Shown: one piece after another, positions 1 to 11,837 of the stretch | Layout: each line of letters begins with the position of its first letter | Position numbering within the stretch: position 1 is the first letter of the stretch | Sequence record: ON210137.1 | Strand: one strand, 5' to 3' | DNA from: Escherichia phage EC150 | DNA: 64,000 nucleotides | Position numbers and translations under genes: made by a program | The notes under the pieces: generated by a model | The model's input: only the letters and a program-made list of their open reading frames with translations | Database searches by the model: none | Told to the model about the DNA's origin: nothing

Positions 1-38
1 GCACGATGCTGACCAGACTTTAATTCAATGGGTAAGGT

Positions 39-464
39 TTGATAACACTGGCGGCGGCAAGTATCGCTACTATGGCGATGAGCGATTCACCACTAAATTC
101 TATAAGGTACTCGACCATGGCTCATGTTAAAGACGAAGTGTTGTTTGGCGCAGAGATTAAGAAACGTGTCAGAGAAATGGCAGGAGAAGAAATAATGAAG
201 CCGCTGCGAAAAGGTTTTGATCACATCAATGGCGTATCCGGCACGAAGGAGATGGGCGTGTTGGTAAAAGACATCCGCATTGGCGATGTCATGGTCATCG
301 ACCGACAAGCACGAGTCGTTATCCAGGTGCAACCGAACGATGGTGAAGGTTGCGTCCTATTGAAGCTGAAGAAGCTTTCATCCAGCCCAGCAAAGGCCGT
401 CATCAAGAAGGTATGGCCCGAAGGATTACGCAAACTCATTCGTCGACCTGTGGAGAATGTGTGA
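39..464 (+). CDS. hypothetical early protein (141 aa)
   Basis: Long ORF at window edge, first of a tightly packed same-strand array; stop overlaps next start; no recognisable motif. Confidence 0.45.
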   Translation: MITLAAASIATMAMSDSPLNSIRYSTMAHVKDEVLFGAEIKKRVREMAGEEIMKPLRKGFDHINGVSGTKEMGVLVKDIRIGDVMVIDRQARVVIQVQPNDGEGCVLLKLKKLSSSPAKAVIKKVWPEGLRKLIRRPVENV

Positions 465-700
465 TGGAAGATTATATCAACGCCATGTATATGGCATTCT
501 ATGTCGTGCAACTTCCCAATGGCGCGGTATTCTATGGCGAGTATACCTTTGACGTTCAATATGACGTTTCAGAGCGTACAGTGTTAACAAGGGAGTTGAT
601 TGCGGACCTTAAGGACGACATCAAGCGCGTCGCGCGGCAGCAGTTCAATTTGGATGACACCGTCATCGTTCGAATTACCGGAATAACAGAGGTGCAGTGA
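464..700 (+). CDS. hypothetical protein (78 aa)
   Basis: Start adjusted to internal ATG that overlaps the upstream stop (TGATG); same-strand array. Confidence 0.45.
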   Translation: MEDYINAMYMAFYVVQLPNGAVFYGEYTFDVQYDVSERTVLTRELIADLKDDIKRVARQQFNLDDTVIVRITGITEVQ

Positions 701-1029
701 TGACCCGTGATCAGATACTCGCCGCGCATGAGCGTGAAAAGGTTAAAGAGATTTGGAAAAGGCACAACTACTTTGCCGAATCCTATTATTTCTTAAAGAA
801 GTGCATAAAGGAAAATGCAAAGATGGACAGTACAACATTAACATTTCGTTTATCTCCACATATAGCAAAGCTTAATGCGATATGCGCTTGTCGACTAGCA
901 AGTATGAAGTTCGATAGAGGAAATGACGGAGAGTTGACCATCTATCGATTCTCCCACCGGACCGGAGACACGAAGATAACAAGGACGCGTGAAGAGCTGG
1001 AGATTGACCTACTCCACTATGTAAAATGA
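700..1029 (+). CDS. hypothetical protein (109 aa)
   Basis: ATG 7 nt after GAGGTG, overlapping upstream stop; followed by hairpin plus U-tract. Confidence 0.5.
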   Translation: MTRDQILAAHEREKVKEIWKRHNYFAESYYFLKKCIKENAKMDSTTLTFRLSPHIAKLNAICACRLASMKFDRGNDGELTIYRFSHRTGDTKITRTREELEIDLLHYVK

Positions 1030-1038
1030 ATATCAAAA

Positions 1039-1068
1039 AGGTGAGCTAAATGCTTGCCTTTTCTTTTA
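1039..1068 (+). terminator. rho-independent terminator, copy 1 of a duplicated terminator-promoter element
   Basis: 8-bp stem AGGTGAGC/GCTTGCCT (two G-U pairs, so it folds only in plus-strand RNA), 5-nt loop TAAAT, then TTTCTTTTA. Confidence 0.5.
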
Positions 1069-1114
1069 TCAATACTTATACTCTTTTCATCAAGACTAAC
1101 AAGCGAGGTGAATT

Positions 1115-1363
1115 ATGGAACGTTATATAGATGCAGAGTGCTTGATAAGTGCAGGTTTGAATGAGGCTGTAGAAGGAAGTAAATATGCCATCTGTCAATC
1201 TGATTATCCGTACAAAGATACTTTTTGGATTGAATTTGGATCAAAAGGGAGTAAGCACCACGCCACTTATGACGTTTGGAAAGCACCAAGCGGACTTTTT
1301 TACATTTTAAAACGTCATTGCCAGCCAGAGTCAGGCGTATTGGCTGTCTTCAAGGAGGTGTGA
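1115..1363 (+). CDS. hypothetical protein (82 aa)
   Basis: GAGGTG ribosome-binding site a few nt upstream of ATG. Confidence 0.5.
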   Translation: MERYIDAECLISAGLNEAVEGSKYAICQSDYPYKDTFWIEFGSKGSKHHATYDVWKAPSGLFYILKRHCQPESGVLAVFKEV

Positions 1364-1365
1364 TT

Positions 1366-1683
1366 GTGATTTACTTAGGCATCGACCAGGAACAAGACGA
1401 GCGGTTAGGAAGCGTGTTAAACGTAGACTTGAACACAGCTGTACACATCAAGCCTTGGCCAGAGGACCACGGCGACGTAGTTGTACCCGTTGCGCCTTGG
1501 ACGCGTTACGTTGCCATTGACAATAACGGCCTTGTTCATTGTTACTCAGAAAGGCCAACGTATTTCGAGATGTACCGCGAATGGCTGATGACTAGTTGGG
1601 CAAAGGTGCGCTGTTGCGGCGAAGTCGGCCTGGAGGGGTGGAGCTTCGAGGCTAGTGAATCGTGTGTCGAGGTGAAATTATGA
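1366..1683 (+). CDS. hypothetical protein (105 aa, GTG start)
   Basis: GTG 7 nt downstream of AGGAGG, directly after upstream stop; Trp/Cys-rich product. Confidence 0.4.
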   Translation: MIYLGIDQEQDERLGSVLNVDLNTAVHIKPWPEDHGDVVVPVAPWTRYVAIDNNGLVHCYSERPTYFEMYREWLMTSWAKVRCCGEVGLEGWSFEASESCVEVKL

Positions 1684-1898
1684 ATGCCGTGCTGGGTAAG
1701 CTGTCTTTCAACAAGCGCAATGAGTTGCGCATGGTGTCTCGTTTTCAATTTTTATTAAATGCTATGTCAAGCGTTGCCATAGCAATGCTTCGCGCTGATT
1801 GCCCTGCTGAAAAGCGTGAGACTTTATTCAAGCGTCACCAACAATTACGAAATGCTGCTTATAAACTGCAGCAATATGCTATGGAGTATGCAAAATGA
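1680..1898 (+). CDS. hypothetical protein (72 aa)
   Basis: Start adjusted to internal ATG overlapping upstream stop (ATGA). Confidence 0.45.
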   Translation: MNAVLGKLSFNKRNELRMVSRFQFLLNAMSSVAIAMLRADCPAEKRETLFKRHQQLRNAAYKLQQYAMEYAK

Positions 1899-2287
1899 GA
1901 ATGAAGCGTTGCCCTTACTGCCACGATGTAATGCATCTTCCACATGAAGAGTTTGTGCAGCACATGACTAATTGTGATAAGAATCCTAAGAGCGAAAGCC
2001 AGCTTGAAGAAAGAATGTTTCTGGTGTCGTTTAAAGCTTCTGCCTATGGCGTGAAACTGGCTTATGGCGCGAGCGGCGCACCAAGTGCTATCAACTGCCC
2101 AACGACATTGAGAAGTGAAATCGACTCGATGCAGCTTGCGGCTTGGATTAACGTCAAGGAAGGCCTCACGCCGCACTTCATCGCGCGCATCCAGTCCCAG
2201 ATTCTTCAAATCAAGCGCGAATACAACCGCGACGTTACTGAAGTGAAGGTCTTGTCCATCACGCCGATGAATAAGGAGCTGGCTTGA
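1895..2287 (+). CDS. hypothetical protein, possibly zinc-binding (130 aa)
   Basis: CPYCHD...H...C Cys/His cluster near N-terminus; ATGA overlap with upstream gene. Confidence 0.5.
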   Translation: MRMKRCPYCHDVMHLPHEEFVQHMTNCDKNPKSESQLEERMFLVSFKASAYGVKLAYGASGAPSAINCPTTLRSEIDSMQLAAWINVKEGLTPHFIARIQSQILQIKREYNRDVTEVKVLSITPMNKELA

Positions 2288-2544
2288 ATAAGGGACCGAT
2301 GGCGCCACTGGCCCTTGCCGCGCGGAAGCTTCGACAGGCCGTTAATGGGTCGCGGCCCGTGGTGTTAACACTAGACGATGCAAAGGCACTGGTAGAGCTA
2401 CTCGACGAGAACAACCGACGCAAGAATAGAGAGAACACATTAAAGTACCGCGTCACGCCAGCCGGACGCGAGTGTGAAAAGAAAGCTTACTTGCGGCGTA
2501 AGTTAAGGTCAGTCGGTCTACACGAAGAAGCCGACCAGATTTAA
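2284..2544 (+). CDS. hypothetical protein (86 aa)
   Basis: ORF in same-strand array with start overlapping upstream stop; followed by terminator copy 2. Confidence 0.45.
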   Translation: MNKGPMAPLALAARKLRQAVNGSRPVVLTLDDAKALVELLDENNRRKNRENTLKYRVTPAGRECEKKAYLRRKLRSVGLHEEADQI

Positions 2545-2551
2545 TTCGAAA

Positions 2552-2580
2552 AGGTGAGCTAAATGCTTGCCTTTTTATTT
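2552..2580 (+). terminator. rho-independent terminator, copy 2 of the duplicated element
   Basis: Same stem-loop as 1039-1059 (AGGTGAGC TAAAT GCTTGCCT) followed by TTTTTATTT. Confidence 0.5.
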
Positions 2581-2622
2581 GTCTGTATTATACTTACTTC
2601 ATCAAGCAAAGGAGAGGTTATT

Positions 2623-2928
2623 ATGAGTACCGAAGCTATGAAGAGCAAGTTGTTTGAGGTGATGCAGCCCGCTGTCGAGTGCGGAGCTATTCAGGAGTTC
2701 AAAGAGACGCAAGAAGGCGGTGAGCCAGTATTCTTCTTCAAGAACAAGAAAGGTGCGGCGGCTGCGGTGATGCTCTTGAAGAACAGCGACACGACCTTTA
2801 TCCTTTGCGCAGGCGGTTATGACCTTGTTGCCGATGATGCCTACATCACCTGTGCGACGGGTCTTAATCCTATGTTAACGTTTGAGCGTCGCGGCATTCG
2901 TGTTGCGACGTTTGGAGGCGGTTTATGA
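2623..2928 (+). CDS. hypothetical protein (101 aa)
   Basis: Start adjusted to internal ATG 5 nt after AAGGAGAGG. Confidence 0.5.
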   Translation: MSTEAMKSKLFEVMQPAVECGAIQEFKETQEGGEPVFFFKNKKGAAAAVMLLKNSDTTFILCAGGYDLVADDAYITCATGLNPMLTFERRGIRVATFGGGL

Positions 2929-3110
2929 GCACCGAAGTCCATAACGCATCAGCACTGGTAAGCTTTTACCGAAACAAAGGCGTGTCGCTAGTTAAAACGC
3001 CGCAAGGCATGCTGTTCTTTGGCACGCGATTCCTTAAGGCTTCGGAGCGTGAAACGCTGTCTAAATTCGACCAGAAGACATTACACGCAGTTTGGAGAAG
3101 ACAGCAATGA
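2925..3110 (+). CDS. hypothetical protein (61 aa)
   Basis: Short ORF with start/stop overlaps on both sides. Confidence 0.35.
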   Translation: MSTEVHNASALVSFYRNKGVSLVKTPQGMLFFGTRFLKASERETLSKFDQKTLHAVWRRQQ

Positions 3111-3307
3111 CATCAAATCTTAAGGCCCGTTTATTATTCATCAAGCCGCATGTGCCGTATAAGATTAGTAAGCGCACCTGGATTAACATTTACAACCGCA
3201 GCGGCGACCGTTGTTTGTACAAGGCAAAGCGGCGCAAGAAGGTATATTTAAAGGCTGTGATGTCGCAACCCGTCGATGCATTCAACATCGGCGAAAATGA
3301 ACTGTAA
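3107..3307 (+). CDS. hypothetical basic protein (66 aa)
   Basis: Internal ATG overlapping upstream stop (ATGA); track ORF begins with TTG at 3092. Confidence 0.4.
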   Translation: MTSNLKARLLFIKPHVPYKISKRTWINIYNRSGDRCLYKAKRRKKVYLKAVMSQPVDAFNIGENEL

Positions 3308-3339
3308 ATCGGCTATCAAATTGAACTCGGAGTAAAGAA

Positions 3340-3849
3340 ATGAAAATCGAACAACTCGAAGCAGTATTGGAAATGGCTGTAAAGGCAGGCGCAATCAGAA
3401 GCTATAGCCGCGAGAAGTCGGATGACGCTGCGCACTTTTGTCGCAACTTCTATATCGTCGGCAACCTTAATGACCACTACACCATCGAGTGGTATACTAA
3501 TATGATGGCTCTTAAGTCGCGCACCATGGAGCTTTGGTGTGATGATGTCTGCTTATCCAACACCCATCCATCCTACGACGTTGCGTTAGCATTCTATTAC
3601 GGAAGCCGTCAACCTGTCGCCCACATCGGTGAGAAGTATGAGCACCTTAAGGCGCGACCAGAGGAATCAATGGACGGTTGGATTTATTGGGCTGGCGTCA
3701 ACAATCCTGTTCCTGGTAAGAAGGTCATGTTTAAATTGCGCTTCGGCTATGAATCTAAATCACCTGCTCTTTCAGATGATTTGAGATGGGAGATTGTTGA
3801 CGATGCTTATGCAACTGACATCATTGCTTATCGAGTCATGGAGGAATAA
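3340..3849 (+). CDS. hypothetical protein (169 aa) sharing a C-terminal domain with 5004-5429
   Basis: C-terminal ~58 aa (W.G.NPVPGK.V.F.L..GY.SK...SD.L.W...AYRV) is paralogous to the C-terminus of the 5004-5429 product. Confidence 0.55.
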   Translation: MKIEQLEAVLEMAVKAGAIRSYSREKSDDAAHFCRNFYIVGNLNDHYTIEWYTNMMALKSRTMELWCDDVCLSNTHPSYDVALAFYYGSRQPVAHIGEKYEHLKARPEESMDGWIYWAGVNNPVPGKKVMFKLRFGYESKSPALSDDLRWEIVDDAYATDIIAYRVMEE

Positions 3850-4190
3850 TGGAAGAGCAAGAAGGCCGTGAGCTAACGTTCGACGAGCAAATGCAAGAGC
3901 TTCAGCGCACATCGTCGCTGCGCGGTAAGGTTGTTGACATCGAGGCGAGCGAATCCAACCTCACCCAGTGGCGGCTCAAGTGCACCAGCACAAGCAAGGA
4001 TATGTTAAGCTTCAAAGTCGGTCAGACTTATTTGCTTTATGAGGCAAAAGGACTTATTATTGATGGAAGGCAAATTGTCTTCACGGTAGTCAGCGGAATG
4101 CATTGGTTCGTGAAGCGTGATGTCGAGGGCCGTGACATGTTTGTCGCAGGATTTCCAGAAACAAGATTCCAATTGGAGAAGGTTAAATGA
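3849..4190 (+). CDS. hypothetical protein (113 aa)
   Basis: ORF in same-strand array; start abuts upstream stop. Confidence 0.5.
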   Translation: MEEQEGRELTFDEQMQELQRTSSLRGKVVDIEASESNLTQWRLKCTSTSKDMLSFKVGQTYLLYEAKGLIIDGRQIVFTVVSGMHWFVKRDVEGRDMFVAGFPETRFQLEKVK

Positions 4191-4519
4191 AATTGAAATG
4201 GTACGTGGACCCTGAGACGACAGGCTCATACAGGTCATTCCAACGTCGCGGCTGGCCGATTTGTTACAGCGGCAATCCCGATAAAGAAGACTGCGAGATG
4301 CTCGCCGCGATAGTAAGTCTTAATCATGACGGCTATGAAGGCCACTACGCGAGAGCAACCAACCTTCGGCTCAAGGTGCGCATCCATTTCAAGGTCGCAG
4401 GCGAGGACCGCACCGGACTCTCCAAAGAAGAGTTCAGCAGCATTGCCGAAGCAAAGGCATGGCTAAAGGCGTTCTACAAGGCCAATCCTAAATTTTATCC
4501 AACTAAGGGTGCATCATGA
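4187..4519 (+). CDS. hypothetical protein (110 aa)
   Basis: ORF in same-strand array; ATGA overlap. Confidence 0.5.
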   Translation: MKLKWYVDPETTGSYRSFQRRGWPICYSGNPDKEDCEMLAAIVSLNHDGYEGHYARATNLRLKVRIHFKVAGEDRTGLSKEEFSSIAEAKAWLKAFYKANPKFYPTKGAS

Positions 4520-5007
4520 CTAACAAAACGCAACGCATCAATTTTGAAGGTAAAGAATACGAAATAGACGCTCGTGCAAGATTCGTTGCGCGCGATTCTA
4601 ACGGAACCATCTGGGCGTATGAGGGAAAGCCTGCATGGAACGATTGGTGCGGCCAGTGGGGATATGCAATTGGCGATTCACTTTGGTGTAAGCAAATTGG
4701 TGATGGAAAGATGTTCAAAGAGAATAAACCATCATCACGTGATTCATTGAAGGAAGTCGAATCAATCAAAATCCAAGACCAAGCGCCATCGACAGATAAC
4801 CAATACGCAGTCGGGCAACGTGACATCGAGCAACTCGACGAGGGCGGCTATTATACGCGCCACATCTATGCCATGACGCATGAAGGACTTTGCAGCAAGT
4901 CGGACATCGCCGCTGAACTGGCCCATCGTGACTTACAAATCGACCTTCTCAAGATAGAAGTGCAGAACTTACGAAACACCCTGTTAAATACTTGGAGCTT
5001 AAAATGA
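4516..5007 (+). CDS. hypothetical protein (163 aa)
   Basis: ORF in same-strand array; ATGA overlap. Confidence 0.5.
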   Translation: MTNKTQRINFEGKEYEIDARARFVARDSNGTIWAYEGKPAWNDWCGQWGYAIGDSLWCKQIGDGKMFKENKPSSRDSLKEVESIKIQDQAPSTDNQYAVGQRDIEQLDEGGYYTRHIYAMTHEGLCSKSDIAAELAHRDLQIDLLKIEVQNLRNTLLNTWSLK

Positions 5008-5429
5008 TACAACGTTACGACCTGACATATGATGTGGTATCAGAAGATTGCTCCATCACTCCCGTTCCAGAGAGTCATGAAGGACGTTTTGTTGCATATG
5101 AGGACTATGCCGCGCTGGAAGCGAAATACAGTGAAGCGCAACGCGAGTTGGTTGCATTACGCTCACAGGTCCGTGATGCATCGGTGCTTGTTAAGCAGTT
5201 GCACGACGTTGTTGCTACTATAGGCGTGGATGATGATGCGCCGAAGGAGGAAGCGTGGACCGTGTGGCTTGGTGGCGCGAATCCGGTGCCTGGGAAGATG
5301 GTTGAGTTTGAATTACTCAACGGTTATAAATCAAAAGAGGCCGTCCCTTCGGATAATTTGAACTGGGGTGCAGTGGCAAGCCCGACTGGCGCAAAGATTG
5401 TTGCTTATCGGGTCGTTAAGGAGGGGTGA
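5004..5429 (+). CDS. hypothetical protein (141 aa) sharing a C-terminal domain with 3340-3849
   Basis: Internal ATG overlapping upstream stop, GGAG 6 nt upstream; C-terminal ~58 aa paralogous to 3340-3849 product. Confidence 0.55.
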   Translation: MIQRYDLTYDVVSEDCSITPVPESHEGRFVAYEDYAALEAKYSEAQRELVALRSQVRDASVLVKQLHDVVATIGVDDDAPKEEAWTVWLGGANPVPGKMVEFELLNGYKSKEAVPSDNLNWGAVASPTGAKIVAYRVVKEG

Positions 5430-5962
5430 TGGGCGGCTTTTGGCGTAAAGCTAAATACTCTAAAGACTTGCATTACTTCTTGGATAATGAAGGCATAAGT
5501 ATATGTGGTAGGTACAGAAGGGATAATGAATCAGCGTCGCAAAGTAATAAGGCTGAATGGTTACTCAAGGAAGAATGCAAAGTTTGCCGCAAACGTTTTT
5601 GTGACAAAACTAGCATAACTGATTACATAAAGGAGCTTAGAAAAAGATGTAAAAGCCCGCAAGAGTTTGCCATAGCTCTTTGGGATGATCACCCTGAGTT
5701 GAGAAGCGAATGGTTAAAGACTGATGCAATCAATTATATCTTCAAATCGAAATACAGGACGACAGCAAGATATAAAATGGATGAAGCAGTAATTCAGAAG
5801 GTATTTTCTTATTGGAGGGATACAGTCGATATTGTGAAAATAAAGAAATACCAAAACGAAGTGCTGCTGGAATTGGAGAGGATTGGCTATAAAGTCACCA
5901 ATAAAATGATAAAAGAAGAAATAAAAAGGAGAACGGAAAAGGGACTGATGCCTAAGATATAG
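5426..5962 (+). CDS. hypothetical basic Cys-containing protein (178 aa)
   Basis: AT-rich coding region whose composition differs from neighbours; no recognisable domain. Confidence 0.45.
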   Translation: MMGGFWRKAKYSKDLHYFLDNEGISICGRYRRDNESASQSNKAEWLLKEECKVCRKRFCDKTSITDYIKELRKRCKSPQEFAIALWDDHPELRSEWLKTDAINYIFKSKYRTTARYKMDEAVIQKVFSYWRDTVDIVKIKKYQNEVLLELERIGYKVTNKMIKEEIKRRTEKGLMPKI

Positions 5963-6209
5963 TGAATAAACGAACACTGTTTACGTGTTTTGAAGAATGG
6001 AATGTGTGCAATGGGTCGCTTTATGCGGCCTTTTGTCGTTTGGGTCGTGTTTTGCGATGGAATAATTATGATGAGGTGTTTTATTTATTGATTGTGCGGA
6101 AATATTTAGAAATATATTTCATAGGTCGTGTCTATTGGTCCGTGGTGTTTGTTAGATTATATCTATGGATTGAAATTTTAGTGTCGTGAAACGTGGTGTT
6201 TGAACACAT

Positions 6210-6575
6210 TTGATACGCCTAAAATACGGCTAAAAATTAAGCGTATCATGGCTGCAGGCCGCGTCGTTCCTGGATTCTTCTTTTTAAAATTGGTACACCC
6301 TTACGTCATGATACGTCATGGTTTTTTATCCGTATCAGTGTACAGCCCTTGCCGCGCCTGGCTTGTACATTAATCTTACGGATGATACGGATAAAACTGG
6401 GCATCGTTATATATAAAACTCCAAAAATAAATAAACTCCATTTTAAAAACATTTATATTAATTTTTTTCATATCCTCATACTTATGTTAATTTATATATT
6501 TAACGTATCATCCGTAAGATATAAGTAAAAACAAAGACTTGCGGCAATACGGATGATACGTCATGATACGCTTCA
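6210..6575. repeat. repeat-flanked AT-rich element, copy A
   Basis: Multiple copies in both orientations of CGTATCATCCGTA / TACGGATGATACG (9-mer unit TCATCCGTA) flanking a ~100-bp AT-rich core (6400-6500); homologous to 22190-22460. Confidence 0.6.
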
Positions 6576-6717
6576 ACCAGCCAGCAGCGGCTAAGTCATT
6601 GATTTGCATAACAAGCGGCGAAAGGGATGGATTTCTTTTATACGTATCAAACAGTACACCACGCACCACGGTCCGCTATTCATTCAGTACTATGATTTGT
6701 GTACGTTTACAGCCAAT

Positions 6718-6746
6718 TTGAACATCAATCTGCACTTGAATATAAT
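6718..6746 (+). promoter_or_regulatory. sigma70-type promoter, near consensus
   Basis: TTGAAC, 17-bp spacer, TATAAT, about 50 bp upstream of the ATG at 6799. Confidence 0.55.
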
Positions 6747-6774
6747 GTTCATTCATTGTATAATTCACACTATT

Positions 6775-7981
6775 AATTTGCACTATGGGATTTGCACTAT
6801 GAGTCAAGATTATGTAGCAATGCCTGAAGACTTTGAAGACCCGCGATTTGCAGAGCATAATCAGGCATTATTCGATGAGTTCATTGACCTTGTTATTCAG
6901 GGCCATGACATGCGCGCAGCTTTTGCACTAGTATTTGGCATGGAGGTTGCGACCGATAACTACACTGGCCAGCGAGTCCTCTGCACGCAACGCAATCCGT
7001 ACTACAAGATGCGCTACAAAAAGCGTATGGAAGAGATGCCATTGAAGGAATTGTGGAGCGTAAAGAGTTCCATCCACAATTTAGTGAAGCTTGTGCGTGA
7101 TCCAGAAGTCGCGGCGTCAGCCAAGCTTAATGCCATTCGTGAACTGAATATCATCTACGGCATCACGATGATTGATGAGAATGGCAATAGTAAAATGGGC
7201 CGTTCCATGGACGATTTCTACAAGGATTTTGGAGAGGCAGCCAAAGAGGGTGAGCAATTCTCCCGCCACTAGCCAATTTGCACTATAAAACGGCCCTAGA
7301 ACACATTTTCTCCACTTCTAGGGCCATCGGTAATACGACGGGGAAGGTTACAACCATAAACGCGTTAGAAAGTGTATTATTATAAGTCATCTTTTAGTCA
7401 CTTTACGTAACAATTTACGACCTTCCGCCGTCCAGTCGAACGACTCCACCAGCAGATTTGCACTATAACCTAAGACGATGCGCCCTTTCTCGTTATCGAC
7501 CCGCCAACAAGTCTCGAATAGCATTCGATTTGCACTATTAACTATCGCCGCAACGCGCGCTGGGTAAGCGCAATTTGCACTATGGTCGTAAAGGGATAAG
7601 GTGCGACCACTTCCGATGGACAACGTAGCGATGAGAATAAGCGTATTCATAAGCCACCAATTTGCACTATGAAAAGCGACCCCGAAGGGCCGCCATTCGA
7701 TTAGATGATCTGGAATGTGTATGACTTGTTGCCGAACTCGAAGTTCAAGCGCCCAGCTTCCTTAAGCTTCATGCGGAAGCGAATGTGCTTGCTATCCGGT
7801 AATCCCAGCGCGATGAAAGCTACGCGGACCGATTTGAACTCGCCTACACCCTCGACCATAACGCCGTTACGGGTGAGACGCTTTTGCGCCACTTCCTTAT
7901 TATCCCAACTTTTTGCAATGCCTTCGCTATTCGAACGGCGATGGGAAGAAGTTCCATTTTGCACTACGCAATTTGCACTAT
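6775..7981 (+). repeat. array of 9 same-orientation copies of an AATTTGCACTAT-like 11-12-mer
   Basis: Copies at 6775, 6790, 7275, 7456, 7528, 7572, 7659, 7956 and 7970; irregular spacing; two copies overlap the start of the 6799 gene. Confidence 0.6.
6799..7272 (+). CDS. hypothetical protein (157 aa), possible regulatory or DNA-binding protein
   Basis: ATG embedded in a motif copy and downstream of the near-consensus promoter; function is inference only. Confidence 0.5.
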   Translation: MSQDYVAMPEDFEDPRFAEHNQALFDEFIDLVIQGHDMRAAFALVFGMEVATDNYTGQRVLCTQRNPYYKMRYKKRMEEMPLKELWSVKSSIHNLVKLVRDPEVAASAKLNAIRELNIIYGITMIDENGNSKMGRSMDDFYKDFGEAAKEGEQFSRH

Positions 7982-8327
7982 CGTTTAGGCCGCTCTTAAC
8001 GAAGGCTTCATACTCTTCGTCGGTCATCGCGTCGAGTTCTTCCTGAGTCGGCTCAGACTTTTTAACGACCGCACGCGCCTTATGCGTTTTTACATCGCTG
8101 GGCACTTCCTCGCGCGGCTTCGCGTCGGGAATGGGCGATTCGTTGGACGGCTCATCGAGCGCGTTCAAGGACTCGATTAACGCGATTACGCGAGTCTCGG
8201 CGGTCCGGCGGTCCGCGAACTTTTTAATCGGCTTCGAACCGGAATTTGCGTTGTAAAATGCAACGAGGTCGGCGGTCTTAGTTGCGATAACGTCGCCGCT
8301 AGTCGAGAAGCGATTTAAGCTAACCAT
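7701..8327 (-). CDS. hypothetical protein (208 aa)
   Basis: AGGAG 6-7 nt upstream of start at 8327; 5' half CpG-rich like the adjacent island; 3' part overlaps two motif copies so extent is uncertain. Confidence 0.5.
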   Translation of the reverse strand: MVSLNRFSTSGDVIATKTADLVAFYNANSGSKPIKKFADRRTAETRVIALIESLNALDEPSNESPIPDAKPREEVPSDVKTHKARAVVKKSEPTQEELDAMTDEEYEAFVKSGLNDSANCVVQNGTSSHRRSNSEGIAKSWDNKEVAQKRLTRNGVMVEGVGEFKSVRVAFIALGLPDSKHIRFRMKLKEAGRLNFEFGNKSYTFQII

Positions 8328-8407
8328 AATAAACTCCTATTTGTTAGGGCGCTAAGCGCGAAAGAATTTTATTAAAGCGCCGCGCACGACGCTCTTAAAA
8401 TCCTCTC

Positions 8408-8692
8408 TTACGCTTCGACGAGGGAGAAGGTTTCAAATTCTTCTTCGCCCATAACGAGTAAAATATTCCCGATTTCGACCGCTTCGAAGAAGTATCCGTT
8501 AACGTTTACTTCGAAGGCTTCGCGGTCCGATTCCGGTAACGCCGCGTAAAGTTTAAAAGCCTCGGCGACCGTTACCCCACCCGCTTCGATAGTTTGGTCT
8601 ACGTTCGCGGCGTAGACTTCGGATAAATTTTGTTTTACGCCGTAGTTCTCGACGATAGCGTTACGGATAGAAGAAACGTTAAGAATAGCCAT
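8408..8692 (-). CDS. small acidic protein (94 aa), paralog of 9326-9616
   Basis: N-terminus and V.(V/I)NG(Y/F)...(V/I)EIG block align with the 9326-9616 product; conserved leader CTCCCAACTAGGAG upstream. Confidence 0.55.
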   Translation of the reverse strand: MAILNVSSIRNAIVENYGVKQNLSEVYAANVDQTIEAGGVTVAEAFKLYAALPESDREAFEVNVNGYFFEAVEIGNILLVMGEEEFETFSLVEA

Positions 8693-8832
8693 TTTAAACT
8701 CCTAGTTGGGAGAGGCGTTAACGACCTATTCGTTAACTCATCCCGTCCCGATATGAGTACATTATAATATAGTGTAGAAAAAAGTAAAGCACTTTTTCGA
8801 TAAAAATGCGATAAATTATTTTATCTTTTTCC

Positions 8833-8860
8833 TTTACTTCTTCGTACACTCGCGTATACT
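8833..8860 (+). promoter_or_regulatory. sigma70-like promoter, duplicated element copy 1
   Basis: TTTACT, 16-bp spacer, TATACT; whole ~45-bp unit (CTTTACTTCTTCGTACACT ... TTTATATCGAGA) repeated at 9229-9272. Confidence 0.4.
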
Positions 8861-8915
8861 TGTTTATATCGAGACGGGCGATGGCCTTCCTTCTACTAGC
8901 ATCGGGAGTTTTATT

Positions 8916-9218
8916 ATGACTACTTTAATCTCTTCTATCCTTACTTACGACGAAGACCGTTTAACCGTTCGTTCTCTTATCGCCGCCGTTAACGCGGAAC
9001 TAGAATCCACCATCATTAAGGTCCGCGCGGTCGCTTTCGTCGGCCTTTCCTTCGACGATATTAAGTATGCCGAACGTAGCGCCATCCGCTTCGCGAAGAC
9101 CGACGACGAAGCCGTTACCCTTATCGAGACGGTTACGCCGCGCGGCGAAGCGTTAATTATCGTCGAGTATATCGACGTAGAGGGCGATAAGGCTTATAAA
9201 TATTTTATCGCAAAATAA
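8916..9218 (+). CDS. small acidic protein (100 aa)
   Basis: ORF with its own copy of the duplicated promoter; CpG-rich codon usage unlike the rest of the window. Confidence 0.5.
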   Translation: MTTLISSILTYDEDRLTVRSLIAAVNAELESTIIKVRAVAFVGLSFDDIKYAERSAIRFAKTDDEAVTLIETVTPRGEALIIVEYIDVEGDKAYKYFIAK

Positions 9219-9229
9219 CGAAAAAGTGC

Positions 9230-9258
9230 TTTACTTCTTCGTACACTAAGACTATAAT
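9230..9258 (+). promoter_or_regulatory. sigma70-like promoter, duplicated element copy 2
   Basis: TTTACT, 17-bp spacer, TATAAT; same unit as 8832-8874. Confidence 0.4.
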
Positions 9259-9325
9259 GTTTTATATCGAGAGGGGAGAGGAAGCGAATAGGTCGCCTTC
9301 CCGCCCTCCCAACTAGGAGAATATT

Positions 9326-9616
9326 ATGATTACTTTATCCGCTATCCGTTCCGCTCGCGTCGAGACTTCCGAAAACTCTAACGTATTTGGCGAAACCTTA
9401 GAGAGCGTTTATCTCTCTAACGTCGACGCGACTATCGAATCTATTTATGAGCCGATCAACTTCCTCGACCTTTACAAGTATCGCGACGAGGACATCGTAT
9501 CATCCCGCGTAACTATCAACGGCTTCGTCTATACGATTACCGAAATCGGCGGCGAATATATCGCGGTCCCGCAACTCGGCGGCGAAGTAACTTATTTTAA
9601 AATCGTCTCCTTATAA
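9326..9616 (+). CDS. small acidic protein (96 aa), paralog of 8408-8692
   Basis: Aligns with the 8408-8692 product; AGGAG RBS inside conserved leader CTCCCAACTAGGAG. Confidence 0.55.
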   Translation: MITLSAIRSARVETSENSNVFGETLESVYLSNVDATIESIYEPINFLDLYKYRDEDIVSSRVTINGFVYTITEIGGEYIAVPQLGGEVTYFKIVSL

Positions 9617-9781
9617 TACCCTTCCGTTACTAATAGGCCGCGCTTAGTCGCGGCTTTTCTTCGTCCCTATCCCGATGCGCGTCTACGCGAAAACTCCTTT
9701 ATCCTTCCCTTCGTCGTCGCATAATCTTCTTCGAGATGCTCCTTAGTTCGCATAACAGGTATTACGTTAAATGGAGAACAT

Positions 9782-9854
9782 CGCGTAAGTCCTTGTTTTA
9801 TATAGACACCTATATCGGACCGTTAGGGCGGGTCGCGTAAGTCGTTGTTTTATA
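9782..9854. repeat. 21-bp direct repeat, 2 copies
   Basis: CGCGTAAGTCCTTGTTTTATA at 9782 and CGCGTAAGTCGTTGTTTTATA at 9834. Confidence 0.4.
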
Positions 9855-9979
9855 AAGGCGCAAAACTTTCCCTTCGTTCCGAACTAAAACGAGAAATGTG
9901 CCGACCCTTCGCCCGAAAATAGTACGTATGCGAAATTACATGCATCTCGAATAATCCCTCCCGATATTATCCTACACGC

Positions 9980-10042
9980 AATCATTCGCTTTCGAATCAT
10001 TATGCTTCATATTGTTATGCGTCGAATCATTCGCTTTCGAAT
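9980..10042. repeat. 18-bp direct repeat, 2 copies
   Basis: AATCATTCGCTTTCGAAT at 9980 and 10025. Confidence 0.4.
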
Positions 10043-10131
10043 TGTAACGCTGGAAACTGTAACGGCGATTGATTATTGCGTTCGTGTGGTTTTTATGGCA
10101 TGGGTCTTTTGGTGCGTTTTGGTACTTGATG

Positions 10132-10244
10132 AAATTTGCAGTACACTAATCAAAATACGACACATTTGGTCCACTAACTTTTCAAAGAAAAAGTCCTAGA
10201 CAGTACCGTACTATTTTGTACCCACAGGAAATTTGCAGTACACT
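10132..10244 (+). repeat. 16-bp direct repeat, 2 copies, related to the AATTTGCA motif family
   Basis: AAATTTGCAGTACACT at 10132 and 10229. Confidence 0.4.
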
Positions 10245-11522: not shown

Positions 11523-11768
11523 TTATTTATCCCCCAACGTCCATGAATTAAACACTAATTTTGCCATTTCATCTTGTGAAACCACATTATAGTGCTTAGG
11601 CAAATCGCTTTCTGATAATACCTTCTGGGCTTCTTCTTTTGTCTCAAAGAGAGGGATGAAAAAGACCAAGCGGTTATCTTCAGGATCAATGCCGCAGATG
11701 ACGTATTTTGGCAATGCTTTTGCTTTTTGAGTCTTATCAATATCTTCAAATTTCATAATACACCTCAC
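11523..11768 (-). CDS. hypothetical protein (81 aa)
   Basis: ORF immediately downstream of the tail-fibre gene on the same strand. Confidence 0.45.
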   Translation of the reverse strand: MRCIMKFEDIDKTQKAKALPKYVICGIDPEDNRLVFFIPLFETKEEAQKVLSESDLPKHYNVVSQDEMAKLVFNSWTLGDK

Positions 11769-11810
11769 TTGTTAACGTATAATGAGTATAACTTAATCGA
11801 GCATAAAGTA

Positions 11811-11830
11811 AAGGCGCTTTTCAGCGCCTT
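11811..11830 (-). terminator. putative terminator after tail-fibre gene
   Basis: Hairpin AAGGCGC/GCGCCTT with 5-nt loop, then a T-rich stretch on the minus-strand transcript. Confidence 0.4.
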
Positions 11831-11837
11831 GAGTGAA

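Follow-up and report, generated by a model that had tools for sequence, protein, structure and literature searches.

A candidate terminator-promoter cassette present in two copies among small accessory genes of a Wifcevirus-like Escherichia phage

Described composite elements and the locus compared with them

The closest described counterparts of the locus reported here are the promoter-early stem-loops (PeSLs) of T4-like phages, which are composites of about 70-90 nt located between small ORFan genes (PMC2839356; PMC4122927). In the order given for PeSLs, a terminator stem-loop is followed by a sigma70-like promoter, a Shine-Dalgarno (SD) sequence and an ATG (PMC4122927). For the PeSLs of nt-1/KVP40, the consensus stem is reported as A3-4G3-loop-C3T3-4 and the -35 consensus as TTGYVH, and the descriptions cited place the PeSL -35 apart from the stem, behind an AT-rich region. 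PeSLs occur in dozens of copies.

The DNA analysed here (64,000 nucleotides from Escherichia phage EC150, hereafter the window) belongs to a Wifcevirus-like E. coli myophage, whose relatives are 87-92% identical overall. It carries two copies of a unit with the PeSL order of components. The stem (AAAAGG...CCTTTT) resembles the nt-1/KVP40 consensus, the -35 hexamer TTGCCT fits TTGYVH, and, as with PeSLs, there are indels between close relatives at the edges of the element. The region is rich in ORFans and variable in gene content. There are also several differences. The phage is a Wifcevirus, allied to the Pbunavirus group (the BASEL preprint names Pbunavirus as relatives of Wifcevirus, and the kaset record places the genus under Lindbergviridae), and is not T4-like. 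It has two near-identical copies and three or more elements of the same design but different sequence, rather than dozens of copies. Its -35 lies inside the stem, its -10 is TATACT, and exchange between neighbouring copies is not seen in the genomes and contigs examined. Our verdict is that the locus is a PeSL-like composite cassette outside the T4-like phages, the 'stem-loop plus promoter' design having already been described in T4-like phages.

Two more familiar systems are also comparable. Like intrinsic terminators of E. coli and its phages, each copy has a stem-loop with a 5-nt loop and an immediate U-rich tract, on the coding strand and just past a stop codon; the A-tract upstream could lengthen the stem. 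Unlike in those terminators, the core is only 7 bp, two neighbouring G-U pairs within it are conserved, not repaired, and the descending arm also serves as a -35 hexamer. One jumbo coliphage has a perfectly paired look-alike, AAAAAGGAGAGC-TTAAT-GCTCTCCTTTTCTTTTAT. The 38-nt jumbo-phage matches in JNE01 and Turkey5 are a generic terminator of this fully paired type between convergent genes, and were rejected as relatives. The locus also recalls morons and accessory gene cassettes: next to promoter and terminator signals, at exact positions between genes, individual small genes of unknown function occur in some genomes and are missing from others. However, the regulatory unit is resident and conserved here while genes come and go beside it, and the inserted genes bring no promoter-terminator pair of their own, relying instead on 18-35 nt of cassette sequence already present, which they reuse or duplicate.

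Homology to phage WFC places the cassettes downstream of the DNA primase in an extended series of small ORFan genes; their position is at the right end of the unique sequence, adjoining a 3.8-kb terminal repeat. The genes that flank them are co-directional, and PHROGs and Pfam assign the neighbouring genes only to families of unknown function. The first-pass annotation of this DNA called the locus part of the early region, a label that is a guess. A literature search found no promoter, terminator or transcriptome study of Wifcevirus.

Anatomy of the two copies

The two copies and the genes beside them consist of the following features.

1036-1062, plus strand: cassette 1 hairpin, with 5′ arm 1036-1046 (AAAAGGTGAGC), loop 1047-1051 (TAAAT) and 3′ arm 1052-1062 (GCTTGCCTTTT)
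continuing to 1067, plus strand: cassette 1 U-rich tract (TTTTCTTTT)
1054-1082, plus strand: predicted cassette 1 sigma70-like promoter, with -35 TTGCCT at 1054-1059, a 17-nt spacer and -10 TATACT at 1077-1082
1086-1117, plus strand: cassette 1 putative start region and leader, with TTCATCAAG at 1086-1094, a variable 5′UTR, SD GAGGTGA at 1105-1111 and ATG at 1115-1117
1115-1363, plus strand: gene for an 82-aa ORFan, inserted directly after the cassette 1 ATG
1366-2544, plus strand: gene module between the cassettes, with four small genes (1366-1683, 1680-1898, 1895-2287 and 2284-2544)
2548-2576, plus strand: cassette 2 hairpin, with 5′ arm 2548-2559 (GAAAAGGTGAGC), loop 2560-2564 (TAAAT) and 3′ arm 2565-2576 (GCTTGCCTTTTT), followed by ATTTG
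2567-2594, plus strand: predicted cassette 2 sigma70-like promoter, with -35 TTGCCT at 2567-2572, a 16-nt spacer and -10 TATACT at 2589-2594
2598-2625, plus strand: cassette 2 putative start region and leader, with TTCATCAAG at 2598-2606, SD GGAGAGG at 2611-2617 and ATG at 2623-2625 (gene 2623-2928)

The first-pass annotation had reported a unit of about 70 bp occurring twice, and this is borne out by an exact 26-nt match, AAAGGTGAGCTAAATGCTTGCCTTTT, at 1037-1062 and 2550-2575 (0 expected from shuffles), together with a second shared block, TTATACTnnnTTCATCAAG, at 1076-1094 and 2588-2606. Since the distance between the copies is 1513 nt for the first half and 1512 nt for the second, the spacer contains a 1-nt indel. 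BLAST aligns copy 1 with copy 2 at 83.9% identity over 62 nt. The duplication had thus been recognized correctly, but its limits (1036-1100 and 2549-2610) had been set too narrowly: the shared unit extends over about 1033-1117 and 2546-2625, reaching the SD sequence and ATG of the next gene.

With up to 3 mismatches allowed, AAAGGTGAGCTAAATGCTTGCCTTTT has no third match within the 64-kb window. The search for further copies that had been proposed as a check was run across the whole window, filters off, using a covariance model that extends from the hairpin to the start site. It found no further significant copy, and its weak matches at 8.8, 49.0 and 47.2 kb (E 0.15-1.9) are other promoters or terminators. 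An Rfam search of positions 1-7500 of the window, with E up to 1, returned no family. The unit has no match in the 5,426 E. coli genomes searched, and a host origin was rejected. Segmental duplication together with genes was also rejected: the genes that follow the two copies are not paralogues of each other, so the cassette did not duplicate along with them.

Both hairpins lie on the coding strand at the end of the upstream gene, beginning 7 nt past the stop codon of gene 697-1029 in cassette 1 and 4 nt past that of gene 2284-2544 in cassette 2. The stems are 11-12 bp long with 4 G-C pairs and a core of only 7 bp; the two G-U pairs of cassette 1 are T1042-G1056 and G1043-T1055. Calculated fold energies are -13.7 kcal/mol for copy 1 (z -5.0) and -15.1 kcal/mol for copy 2 (z -5.2), which is 9-10 kcal/mol better than shuffles, and 0/200 shuffles were as stable. 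Directly 3′ of the stem is the U-rich tract (GCC-TTTTCTTTTAT in copy 1, GCC-TTTTTATTTG in copy 2), and in both copies the hairpin and U-tract pass a terminator scan. Both orthologous hairpins are independently annotated as terminators, by an ARNold-type prediction, in the GenBank records of WFC and WFH. The TAAAT loop, the two G-U pairs and the U-tract are all present as first described. The accompanying statement that the hairpin folds only in the plus-strand transcript was right in that the antisense fold loses 4.4-6.9 kcal/mol through the G-U pairs, but 'only' is overstated: minus-strand RNA folds at -9.3 kcal/mol (copy 1) and -8.2 kcal/mol (copy 2), with a 2x2 internal loop.

A promoter scan calls TTGCCT-N17/16-TATACT in the two copies, with both -35 hexamers sitting within the 3′ arm of the stem. 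These candidates have 9/12 consensus matches, and 31 such sites are found in 12 kb versus 20 expected by chance. The conserved segment that begins with TATACT and leads into the next gene's ribosome-binding site, as the earlier annotation had it, is found in both copies and is followed by an SD sequence and ATG. Transcription is predicted to start at A1089 in cassette 1 and A2601 in cassette 2, 7 nt after the -10. In T4 middle promoters, the MotA box lies about 12 nt from the -10; TGCTT was considered as a MotA box and rejected, being ~20 nt away.

TATACT is over-represented in the window (27 versus 16.5 +/- 3.9 occurrences), and it also stands behind other coding-strand intergenic hairpins at 11.8, 45.0 and 59.1 kb, where the -35 hexamers are TTTACT, TTTACT and TTGCTG, respectively. 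As it recurs at these three places, a hairpin followed by TATACT is the phage's usual design. Beyond the two copies, we thus count three intergenic elements of like design, one of them with significant similarity; only the two copies share sequence. The similar one is a possible third, diverged relative:

11754-11837, minus strand: hairpin AAGGCGC-TGAAAA-GCGCCTT at 11830-11811, TTTACT-N16-TATACT at 11812-11785, then TTAACAAGTGAGGTGTATTATG, with ATG at 11756-11754

In global alignment with cassette 1 this unit has z = 8.6, and 0/500 shuffles reach its score. Its stem differs from that of the cassettes and is fully paired, and the hairpin-to-start-site covariance model does not recover it.

Conservation and the terminator-promoter reading

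All relatives carry the unit in two copies. BLAST finds two places per record in 28/28 public relatives, and both copies occupy the same two gene junctions in 18/18 fetched relatives. Exact-pattern scans of IMG/VR and metagenomes matched only Wifcevirus-type contigs, and every such contig long enough to span both sites has both copies. Within the public records, IMG/VR and metagenome contigs searched, the unit is confined to Wifcevirus sequences. In the relatives, the genes of the module between the cassettes keep their order, the one departure being an additional copy of one gene family in some of them, and the gene directly after the cassette 2 ATG is one of four different genes.

We analysed conservation in 38 copies from 19 genomes. 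The stem is intact in 37/38 copies, and TATACT and TTCATCAAG are intact in 38/38. The copy 1 stem is invariant (19/19 sequences); the single stem change is a stem-breaking G>T in copy 2 of SP13, which is uncompensated. As there are no compensated changes among the 38 copies, the stem has no covariation evidence. The copy 2 loop varies among relatives (TAAAT, TAAGT or TATAT). Both promoter hexamers are kept in all 38 copies, and the spacer length is fixed at 17 in copy 1 and 16 in copy 2, while the spacer sequence differs between the paralogues, drifts slightly in copy 1 and varies among copy 2 orthologues. The paralogues share only the hairpin, -10 and start blocks; spacer and 5′UTR vary. Cassette 1 has 12/80 variable columns versus 45% in the flanking genes (P about 2e-8), and cassette 2 has 16/81 versus 29% (P about 0.04), although part of this invariance reflects shared ancestry, given that the relatives are so similar overall. 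Read from the alignments, the pattern is that of a promoter, in which the hexamers and start region are fixed and the spacer is free in sequence but fixed in length.

On balance, we think that each copy probably stops one transcript and starts the next, forming a composite terminator-promoter cassette within co-directional small accessory genes. The first-pass annotation had read the unit as terminator plus promoter, and this reading fits every feature that can be computed (stem-loop, U-tract, hexamers, an A 7 nt on, SD and ATG). As polymerase leaves the upstream gene, the transcript would fold into the GGUGAGC/GCUUGCC hairpin, which A-U pairs lengthen and behind which the U-tract lies. The hairpin would then act as an intrinsic terminator, whose action, given two G-U pairs in a 7-bp core, is probably partial. 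The same DNA would be a promoter of the host sigma70 type, in which the descending terminator arm supplies TTGCCT as the -35 and TATACT follows 16-17 bp on. Transcription would begin at the A of TTCATCAAG, and a leader of 22-26 nt would carry the SD sequence of the next gene. We infer termination and initiation at these sites, and likewise their timing and the use of host polymerase, from this layout. The gene cluster would in this way fall into units with separate initiation (up to 1029, 1115-2544, and from 2623 on). On this reading, the two copies are old paralogues that became fixed before the genus diversified, with purifying selection maintaining the hairpin, the -10 and the start region in both. 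If confirmed, these would be the first transcription-unit boundaries for the genus Wifcevirus, which has so far had no transcript map and which is reported to replicate unusually fast (reference 87 as cited in the BASEL preprint). The current view of phage gene regulation would be unchanged by the cassettes.

Besides the chance frequency of such promoter matches, the lack of compensated stem changes and the shared ancestry noted above, two features of the stem count against this explanation: a 7-bp core with two G-U pairs is weak for a terminator, and the explanation gives no reason for the 5′ arm remaining GGTGAGC when GGCAAGC would pair completely. The hairpin is the best-supported part of the unit, while the promoter match of 9/12 is one that many sites reach by chance, and the co-directional genes on both sides could be expressed through read-through alone. 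The hairpin could be only a terminator or a 3′-end stabilising structure, with TATACT...TTCATCAAG a 5′UTR or translation signal, or a site for an RNase or regulator, and with the downstream genes transcribed wholly by read-through from upstream. We consider this unlikely, though the strongest of the alternatives. What the paralogues have in common is precisely the -35, the -10 and the site 7 nt further along, whereas the intervening sequence and the true leader differ, a pattern of sharing that a UTR or translation signal would not predict. The constant spacer length of 16-17, the TATACT that follows other hairpins in the genome and its over-representation likewise argue for a promoter.

Gene turnover at the cassette edges and the remaining alternatives

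The first-pass annotation further suggested that the transcription units can be shuffled by recombination between the two repeats. Of this we find no trace: among the copies inspected in relatives and in IMG/VR and metagenome contigs, there is no deletion, triplication or copy 1/copy 2 chimera, and the two copies are in the same places everywhere inspected. Gene flux of another kind does occur at the cassette edges, by comparison of the genomes, via short repeats of cassette or translation-start sequence. All four cassette sides are indel junctions among the 19 genomes. Four independent insertions abut cassette edges and are flanked by direct repeats of 18-35 nt of cassette sequence, three of them imperfect. 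In WFC, SP13 and HansTraber, the 21-nt direct repeat AAATGAATATCAAAAAGGTGA lies on either side of a 64-aa gene; the repeat includes the hairpin 5′ arm, and this arm serves as the gene's SD sequence. The 82-aa gene of the window (1115-1363) is flanked by an imperfect repeat of the SD region, CAAGcGAGGTGaATTaTG (1100-1117) and CAAGgAGGTGtgATTGTG (1351-1368); none of the 18 fetched relatives has it at this place, and Shigella phage CWP003 is alone in the phage collection in carrying it, at the same place. In RCIP0319, an insertion of 1.45 kb abuts hairpin 2 on its 5′ side and shows an imperfect AATAAC...GGTGAG repeat; in VerenaG, the 24-nt repeat TCAAGCAAAGGAGAnnTGATTATG stands on both sides of an extra gene. 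The slot after cassette 2 contains 1-4 genes in many combinations.

The repeat-flanked indels on all four sides and the many combinations in the slot after cassette 2 raise the question of whether the unit is primarily a recombination linker, that is, portable homology for gain and loss of accessory genes in PeSL style, possibly with excised mini-circles, regulation being secondary. This appears improbable to us. Exchange between the two cassettes is seen in no genome or contig examined, and about ten other indel junctions within the same 6 kb lack a cassette, so that a causal role of the cassettes in gene flux is only suggestive. Moreover, by any mechanism, an insertion is better tolerated where neighbouring genes do not overlap than at a coupled ATGA junction, and the event counts are small and not corrected for phylogeny. 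A further proposal, which can be offered tentatively, is that the cassettes, along with translation starts resembling the 5′ arm (AAGGTGAGCTA...ATG), may serve as portable short homologies for the insertion and excision of single accessory genes. This would be PeSL-type shuffling in a lineage unrelated to T4, and the conserved G-U pairs might be kept so that the 5′ arm reads as an SD sequence reused by inserted genes and the 3′ arm as a -35. If the cassettes themselves are confirmed, the T4-type 'stem-loop plus promoter' cassette and its link to accessory-gene turnover would be extended to an unrelated myophage lineage. In addition, the two cassette edges are natural, tolerated insertion points for the engineering of Wifceviruses, which are used against E. 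coli O157.

The stem sequence itself is invariant in 37/38 copies and its G-U pairs are never repaired to G-C or A-U, which could also be explained if the hairpin were a sequence-specific RNA or DNA target of a phage protein, such as an antitermination, processing or recombination factor. Such a target would account for the 26-nt identity including the wobble pairs, and the PeSL authors speculated about a protein recognising the conserved stem (PMC2839356). We regard this as very unlikely here. The copy 2 loop varies freely, there are only two sites per genome, and no candidate protein was found, the neighbouring genes matching no family of known function. The stem also overlaps the -35 and its 5′ arm resembles an SD sequence, so its sequence is already constrained.

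Finally, it is hardly credible that the 5′ arm and loop (AAGGTGA-GCTAA-ATG) are the real translation start of a small hydrophobic peptide or N-terminal extension and the hairpin incidental: an SD-like sequence does lie 5 nt from the ATG in the loop, the ATG at 2563 in the window is in frame with gene 2623-2928, and small ORFs or extended genes are annotated in Bas98_0076, Bas99_0075, kaset_CDS0079 and AV128, but the reading frame is not conserved, and the small-ORF reading was rejected on this ground, with 1-nt leader indels in WFC, WFH and RCIP0363 (copy 2) and in RCIP0319, SP13 and ManiWeber (copy 1), a CGA>TGA change that places a TGA in frame in about half of the copy 1 sequences, different frames of copies 1 and 2 relative to the next gene, and copy 2 substitutions that are non-synonymous in that frame.

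Anatomy and conservation of the duplicated unit

The first-pass annotation had described a duplicated terminator-plus-promoter cassette in the early region, and the duplication itself is borne out. The block AAAGGTGAGCTAAATGCTTGCCTTTT has exact matches at 1037-1062 and 2550-2575, and no other site in the window comes within three mismatches of it (chance expectation 0); downstream of it, TTATACTnnnTTCATCAAG is found at 1076-1094 and 2588-2606. The copies are offset by 1513 nt in the first block and by 1512 nt in the second, so the spacer contains a 1-nt indel. The two units, cassette 1 (about 1033-1117, plus strand) and cassette 2 (about 2546-2625, plus strand), have these parts in order:

Hairpin: starts 4-7 nt after the upstream gene's stop codon and is followed by a U-tract
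-35 element, TTGCCT: within the descending arm of the stem in both units
Spacer from TTGCCT to the -10 element, TATACT: 17 nt in copy 1, 16 nt in copy 2
Predicted start block, TTCATCAAG: its A lies six nt past TATACT in both units
Leader: 22-26 nt, contains a Shine-Dalgarno sequence and ends at the next gene's ATG

In plus-strand RNA, the 11-12-bp hairpins have folding energies of -13.7 and -15.1 kcal/mol (z about -5 for both). Their 5′ arm, GGTGAGC, resembles a Shine-Dalgarno sequence and yields two G-U pairs, where a fully complementary arm would read GGCAAGC. These pairs, on which the first-pass annotation based its claim that the element folds only in the plus-strand transcript, are confirmed, but ‘only’ is too strong: the antisense RNA also folds, with a 2x2 internal loop and 4.4-6.9 kcal/mol more weakly.

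Twenty-eight phage records are 86-92% identical to the first 6 kb of the window; every one is a Wifcevirus-type myophage of E. coli or Shigella with a genome of 67-72 kb (among them Ro157lw, ManiWeber_Bas99, vB_Eco4M-7, WFC, WFH, FEC19 and ECML-117). As none is identical, the phage studied here is a further Wifcevirus member. Exactly two sites are present in each of the 28 records, and the same arrangement is seen in IMG/VR and metagenome contigs. Among the 38 copies in 19 genomes inspected, TATACT and TTCATCAAG are always intact, and the core stem is intact in 37, the sole change being an uncompensated G>T in copy 2 of SP13; because the stem does not vary, conservation provides no covariation evidence. 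The loop of copy 2 reads TAAAT, TAAGT or TATAT, and spacer length is constant within each copy. The two paralogues have in common only the hairpin (including the -35), the -10 and the start block, and differ in spacer and leader. In cassette 1, 12 of 80 alignment columns are variable, versus 45% in flanking genes (P ~2e-8), and in cassette 2, 16 of 81, versus 29% (P ~0.04). The pattern is that expected of a terminator fused to a sigma70-type promoter.

Interpretation and known systems

The corresponding region of the relatives belongs to a long series of small hypothetical genes that follows the DNA primase gene on the same strand. The 3,784-bp direct terminal repeat of WFC maps to about 6440-10190 of the window, which makes the cassette-bearing cluster the rightmost part of the unique sequence, with its transcription directed towards the terminal repeat. 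The best explanation of each unit, and one that we consider reasonably probable, is a predicted partial terminator combined with a re-initiating promoter. Anatomy, fold and conservation pattern all fit this reading. Taken as a whole, what the first-pass annotation proposed is borne out in part. The recombination between repeats that the first-pass annotation also envisaged has left no trace, as none of the genomes and contigs examined shows the loss of a copy, an additional copy or a chimera of copies 1 and 2. The genes that follow copy 1 bear no relation to those that follow copy 2, which indicates that no genes were duplicated along with the cassette.

The reading as a small ORF that begins with the ATG in the loop was rejected, since the genomes do not preserve its reading frame. 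Small ORFs and N-terminally extended genes annotated across the cassette in some of the relatives' GenBank records (loci L003, 3997-4089; L008, 3990-4082; L006, 5283-5639; L011, 5274-5636) are thus probably mis-annotations. An element common with jumbo phages was dismissed because the jumbo-phage match is a generic terminator, and neither a known RNA family (Rfam) nor a host-derived sequence (E. coli genomes) gave a match.

The element is of an ordinary kind. Among described systems it comes closest to the promoter-early stem-loop (PeSL) of T4-like phages, where a terminator stem-loop sits just before an early promoter of sigma70-like type, which is followed by a Shine-Dalgarno sequence and an ATG. 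PeSLs are found in ORFan-rich hyperplastic regions, and inter-copy exchange produces indels and mini-circles (PMC2839356, PMC4122927). Architecture and genomic context are alike. However, the Wifcevirus cassettes differ in host lineage and copy number, have the -35 inside the stem and show no inter-copy exchange, and are therefore not PeSLs proper. The terminator half is not new, since the WFC and WFH GenBank records already label both hairpins putative terminators; in the literature on Wifcevirus, our search returned no study of promoters, terminators or the transcriptome.

Genes inserted beside the cassettes

Among relatives, the cassette edges are indel junctions. Immediately upstream of cassette 1, WFC, SP13 and HansTraber carry a 64-aa gene bounded by a 21-nt direct repeat, AAATGAATATCAAAAAGGTGA, in whose left copy the hairpin 5′ arm provides that gene's Shine-Dalgarno sequence. 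Directly after the cassette-1 ATG, an 82-aa ORFan found only in this window and CWP003 is bounded by imperfect repeats of the Shine-Dalgarno region. In RCIP0319, an insertion of 1.45 kb abuts hairpin 2 on its 5′ side and is accompanied by an imperfect repeat, AATAAC...GGTGAG; VerenaG has an additional gene after cassette 2, bounded by a 24-nt cassette-leader repeat (22/24 identical). The slot after cassette 2 holds one to four genes in many combinations, including zero to two tandem paralogues that each have the same translation-start sequence. About ten further indel junctions within this 6-kb region fall at gene junctions without a cassette, and spaced junctions are more insertion-tolerant than overlapping ones, so the association between insertions and cassettes is suggestive, not demonstrated.

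A gene family whose products begin MSTEAMK or MSYDERF (window 2623-2928; loci L001-L018 in relatives) has zero, one or two tandem copies right after cassette 2, depending on the Wifcevirus, every one preceded by GGAGAnnTGATTATGAGT. Window genes 2623 and 2925 have their first 13 nt in common (ATGAG[TC]ACCGAAG), which looks like a possible substrate for unequal crossing-over. A gene start in the variable slot, AGAGGGTGAGCTATG (L011, AV128, about 5620-5635; also L013 and L014), has the 9-mer GGTGAGCTA in common with the cassette 5′ arm and loop, and may be a relic half-cassette or a chance likeness.

Related hairpins and other features of the window

The first-pass annotation had proposed looking for further copies; a covariance model from hairpin to start site, searched against the window, gave no significant E-value beyond the two. 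The hairpin-plus-promoter design also recurs outside the two cassettes. The window has more TATACT hexamers than expected (27 versus 16.5 +/- 3.9), and TATACT stands behind further coding-strand intergenic hairpins at 11.8, 45.0 and 59.1 kb (-35 TTTACT, TTTACT and TTGCTG, respectively). The unit at 11837-11754 (minus strand) is similar to cassette 1 from end to end, and significantly so (z 8.6). Most of the likeness lies in the -10 and in TAACAAG(C/T)GAGGTG(A/T)ATTATG; the unit's stem differs but is fully paired.

Another terminator-like hairpin, GGGTCGCTT(TA/AG)TGCGGCC with a T-tract behind it, is also present twice, at 6013-6030 (plus) and 10285-10268 (minus), against a chance expectation of 0.05 matches. 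The two lie just outside both boundaries of the WFC terminal-repeat match and point inward, as if they would keep transcription of the neighbouring clusters out of the repeat. The left boundary of that match falls within 6190-6800, about 600 nt of AT-rich sequence without a convincing gene. Strong promoter-like sites stand there at 6718-6764 (TTGAAC or TTGAAT, N17, TATAAT), together with GATACG-type repeats and a 27-nt inverted repeat (6363-6389 / 6504-6530). Inside the match, ATTTGCACTAT has at least six plus-strand sites in 6777-7983 and may be a regulator or promoter motif. Also in the terminal-repeat homologue, at 8.7-9.3 kb, are three divergently arranged copies of a longer promoter-like repeat, AAAGTGCTTTACTTcTTCGTACACT...TATA(A/C)T...TTATATCGAGA, at 8749-8802 (minus), 8820-8881 (plus) and 9216-9279 (plus), which are likely the phage's strongest host-polymerase promoters. 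Finally, the products of two plus-strand genes with no assigned function, 3340-3849 and 4992-5429, share a domain at their C-termini; it spans about 58 aa and is 47% identical between them (E 1e-14).
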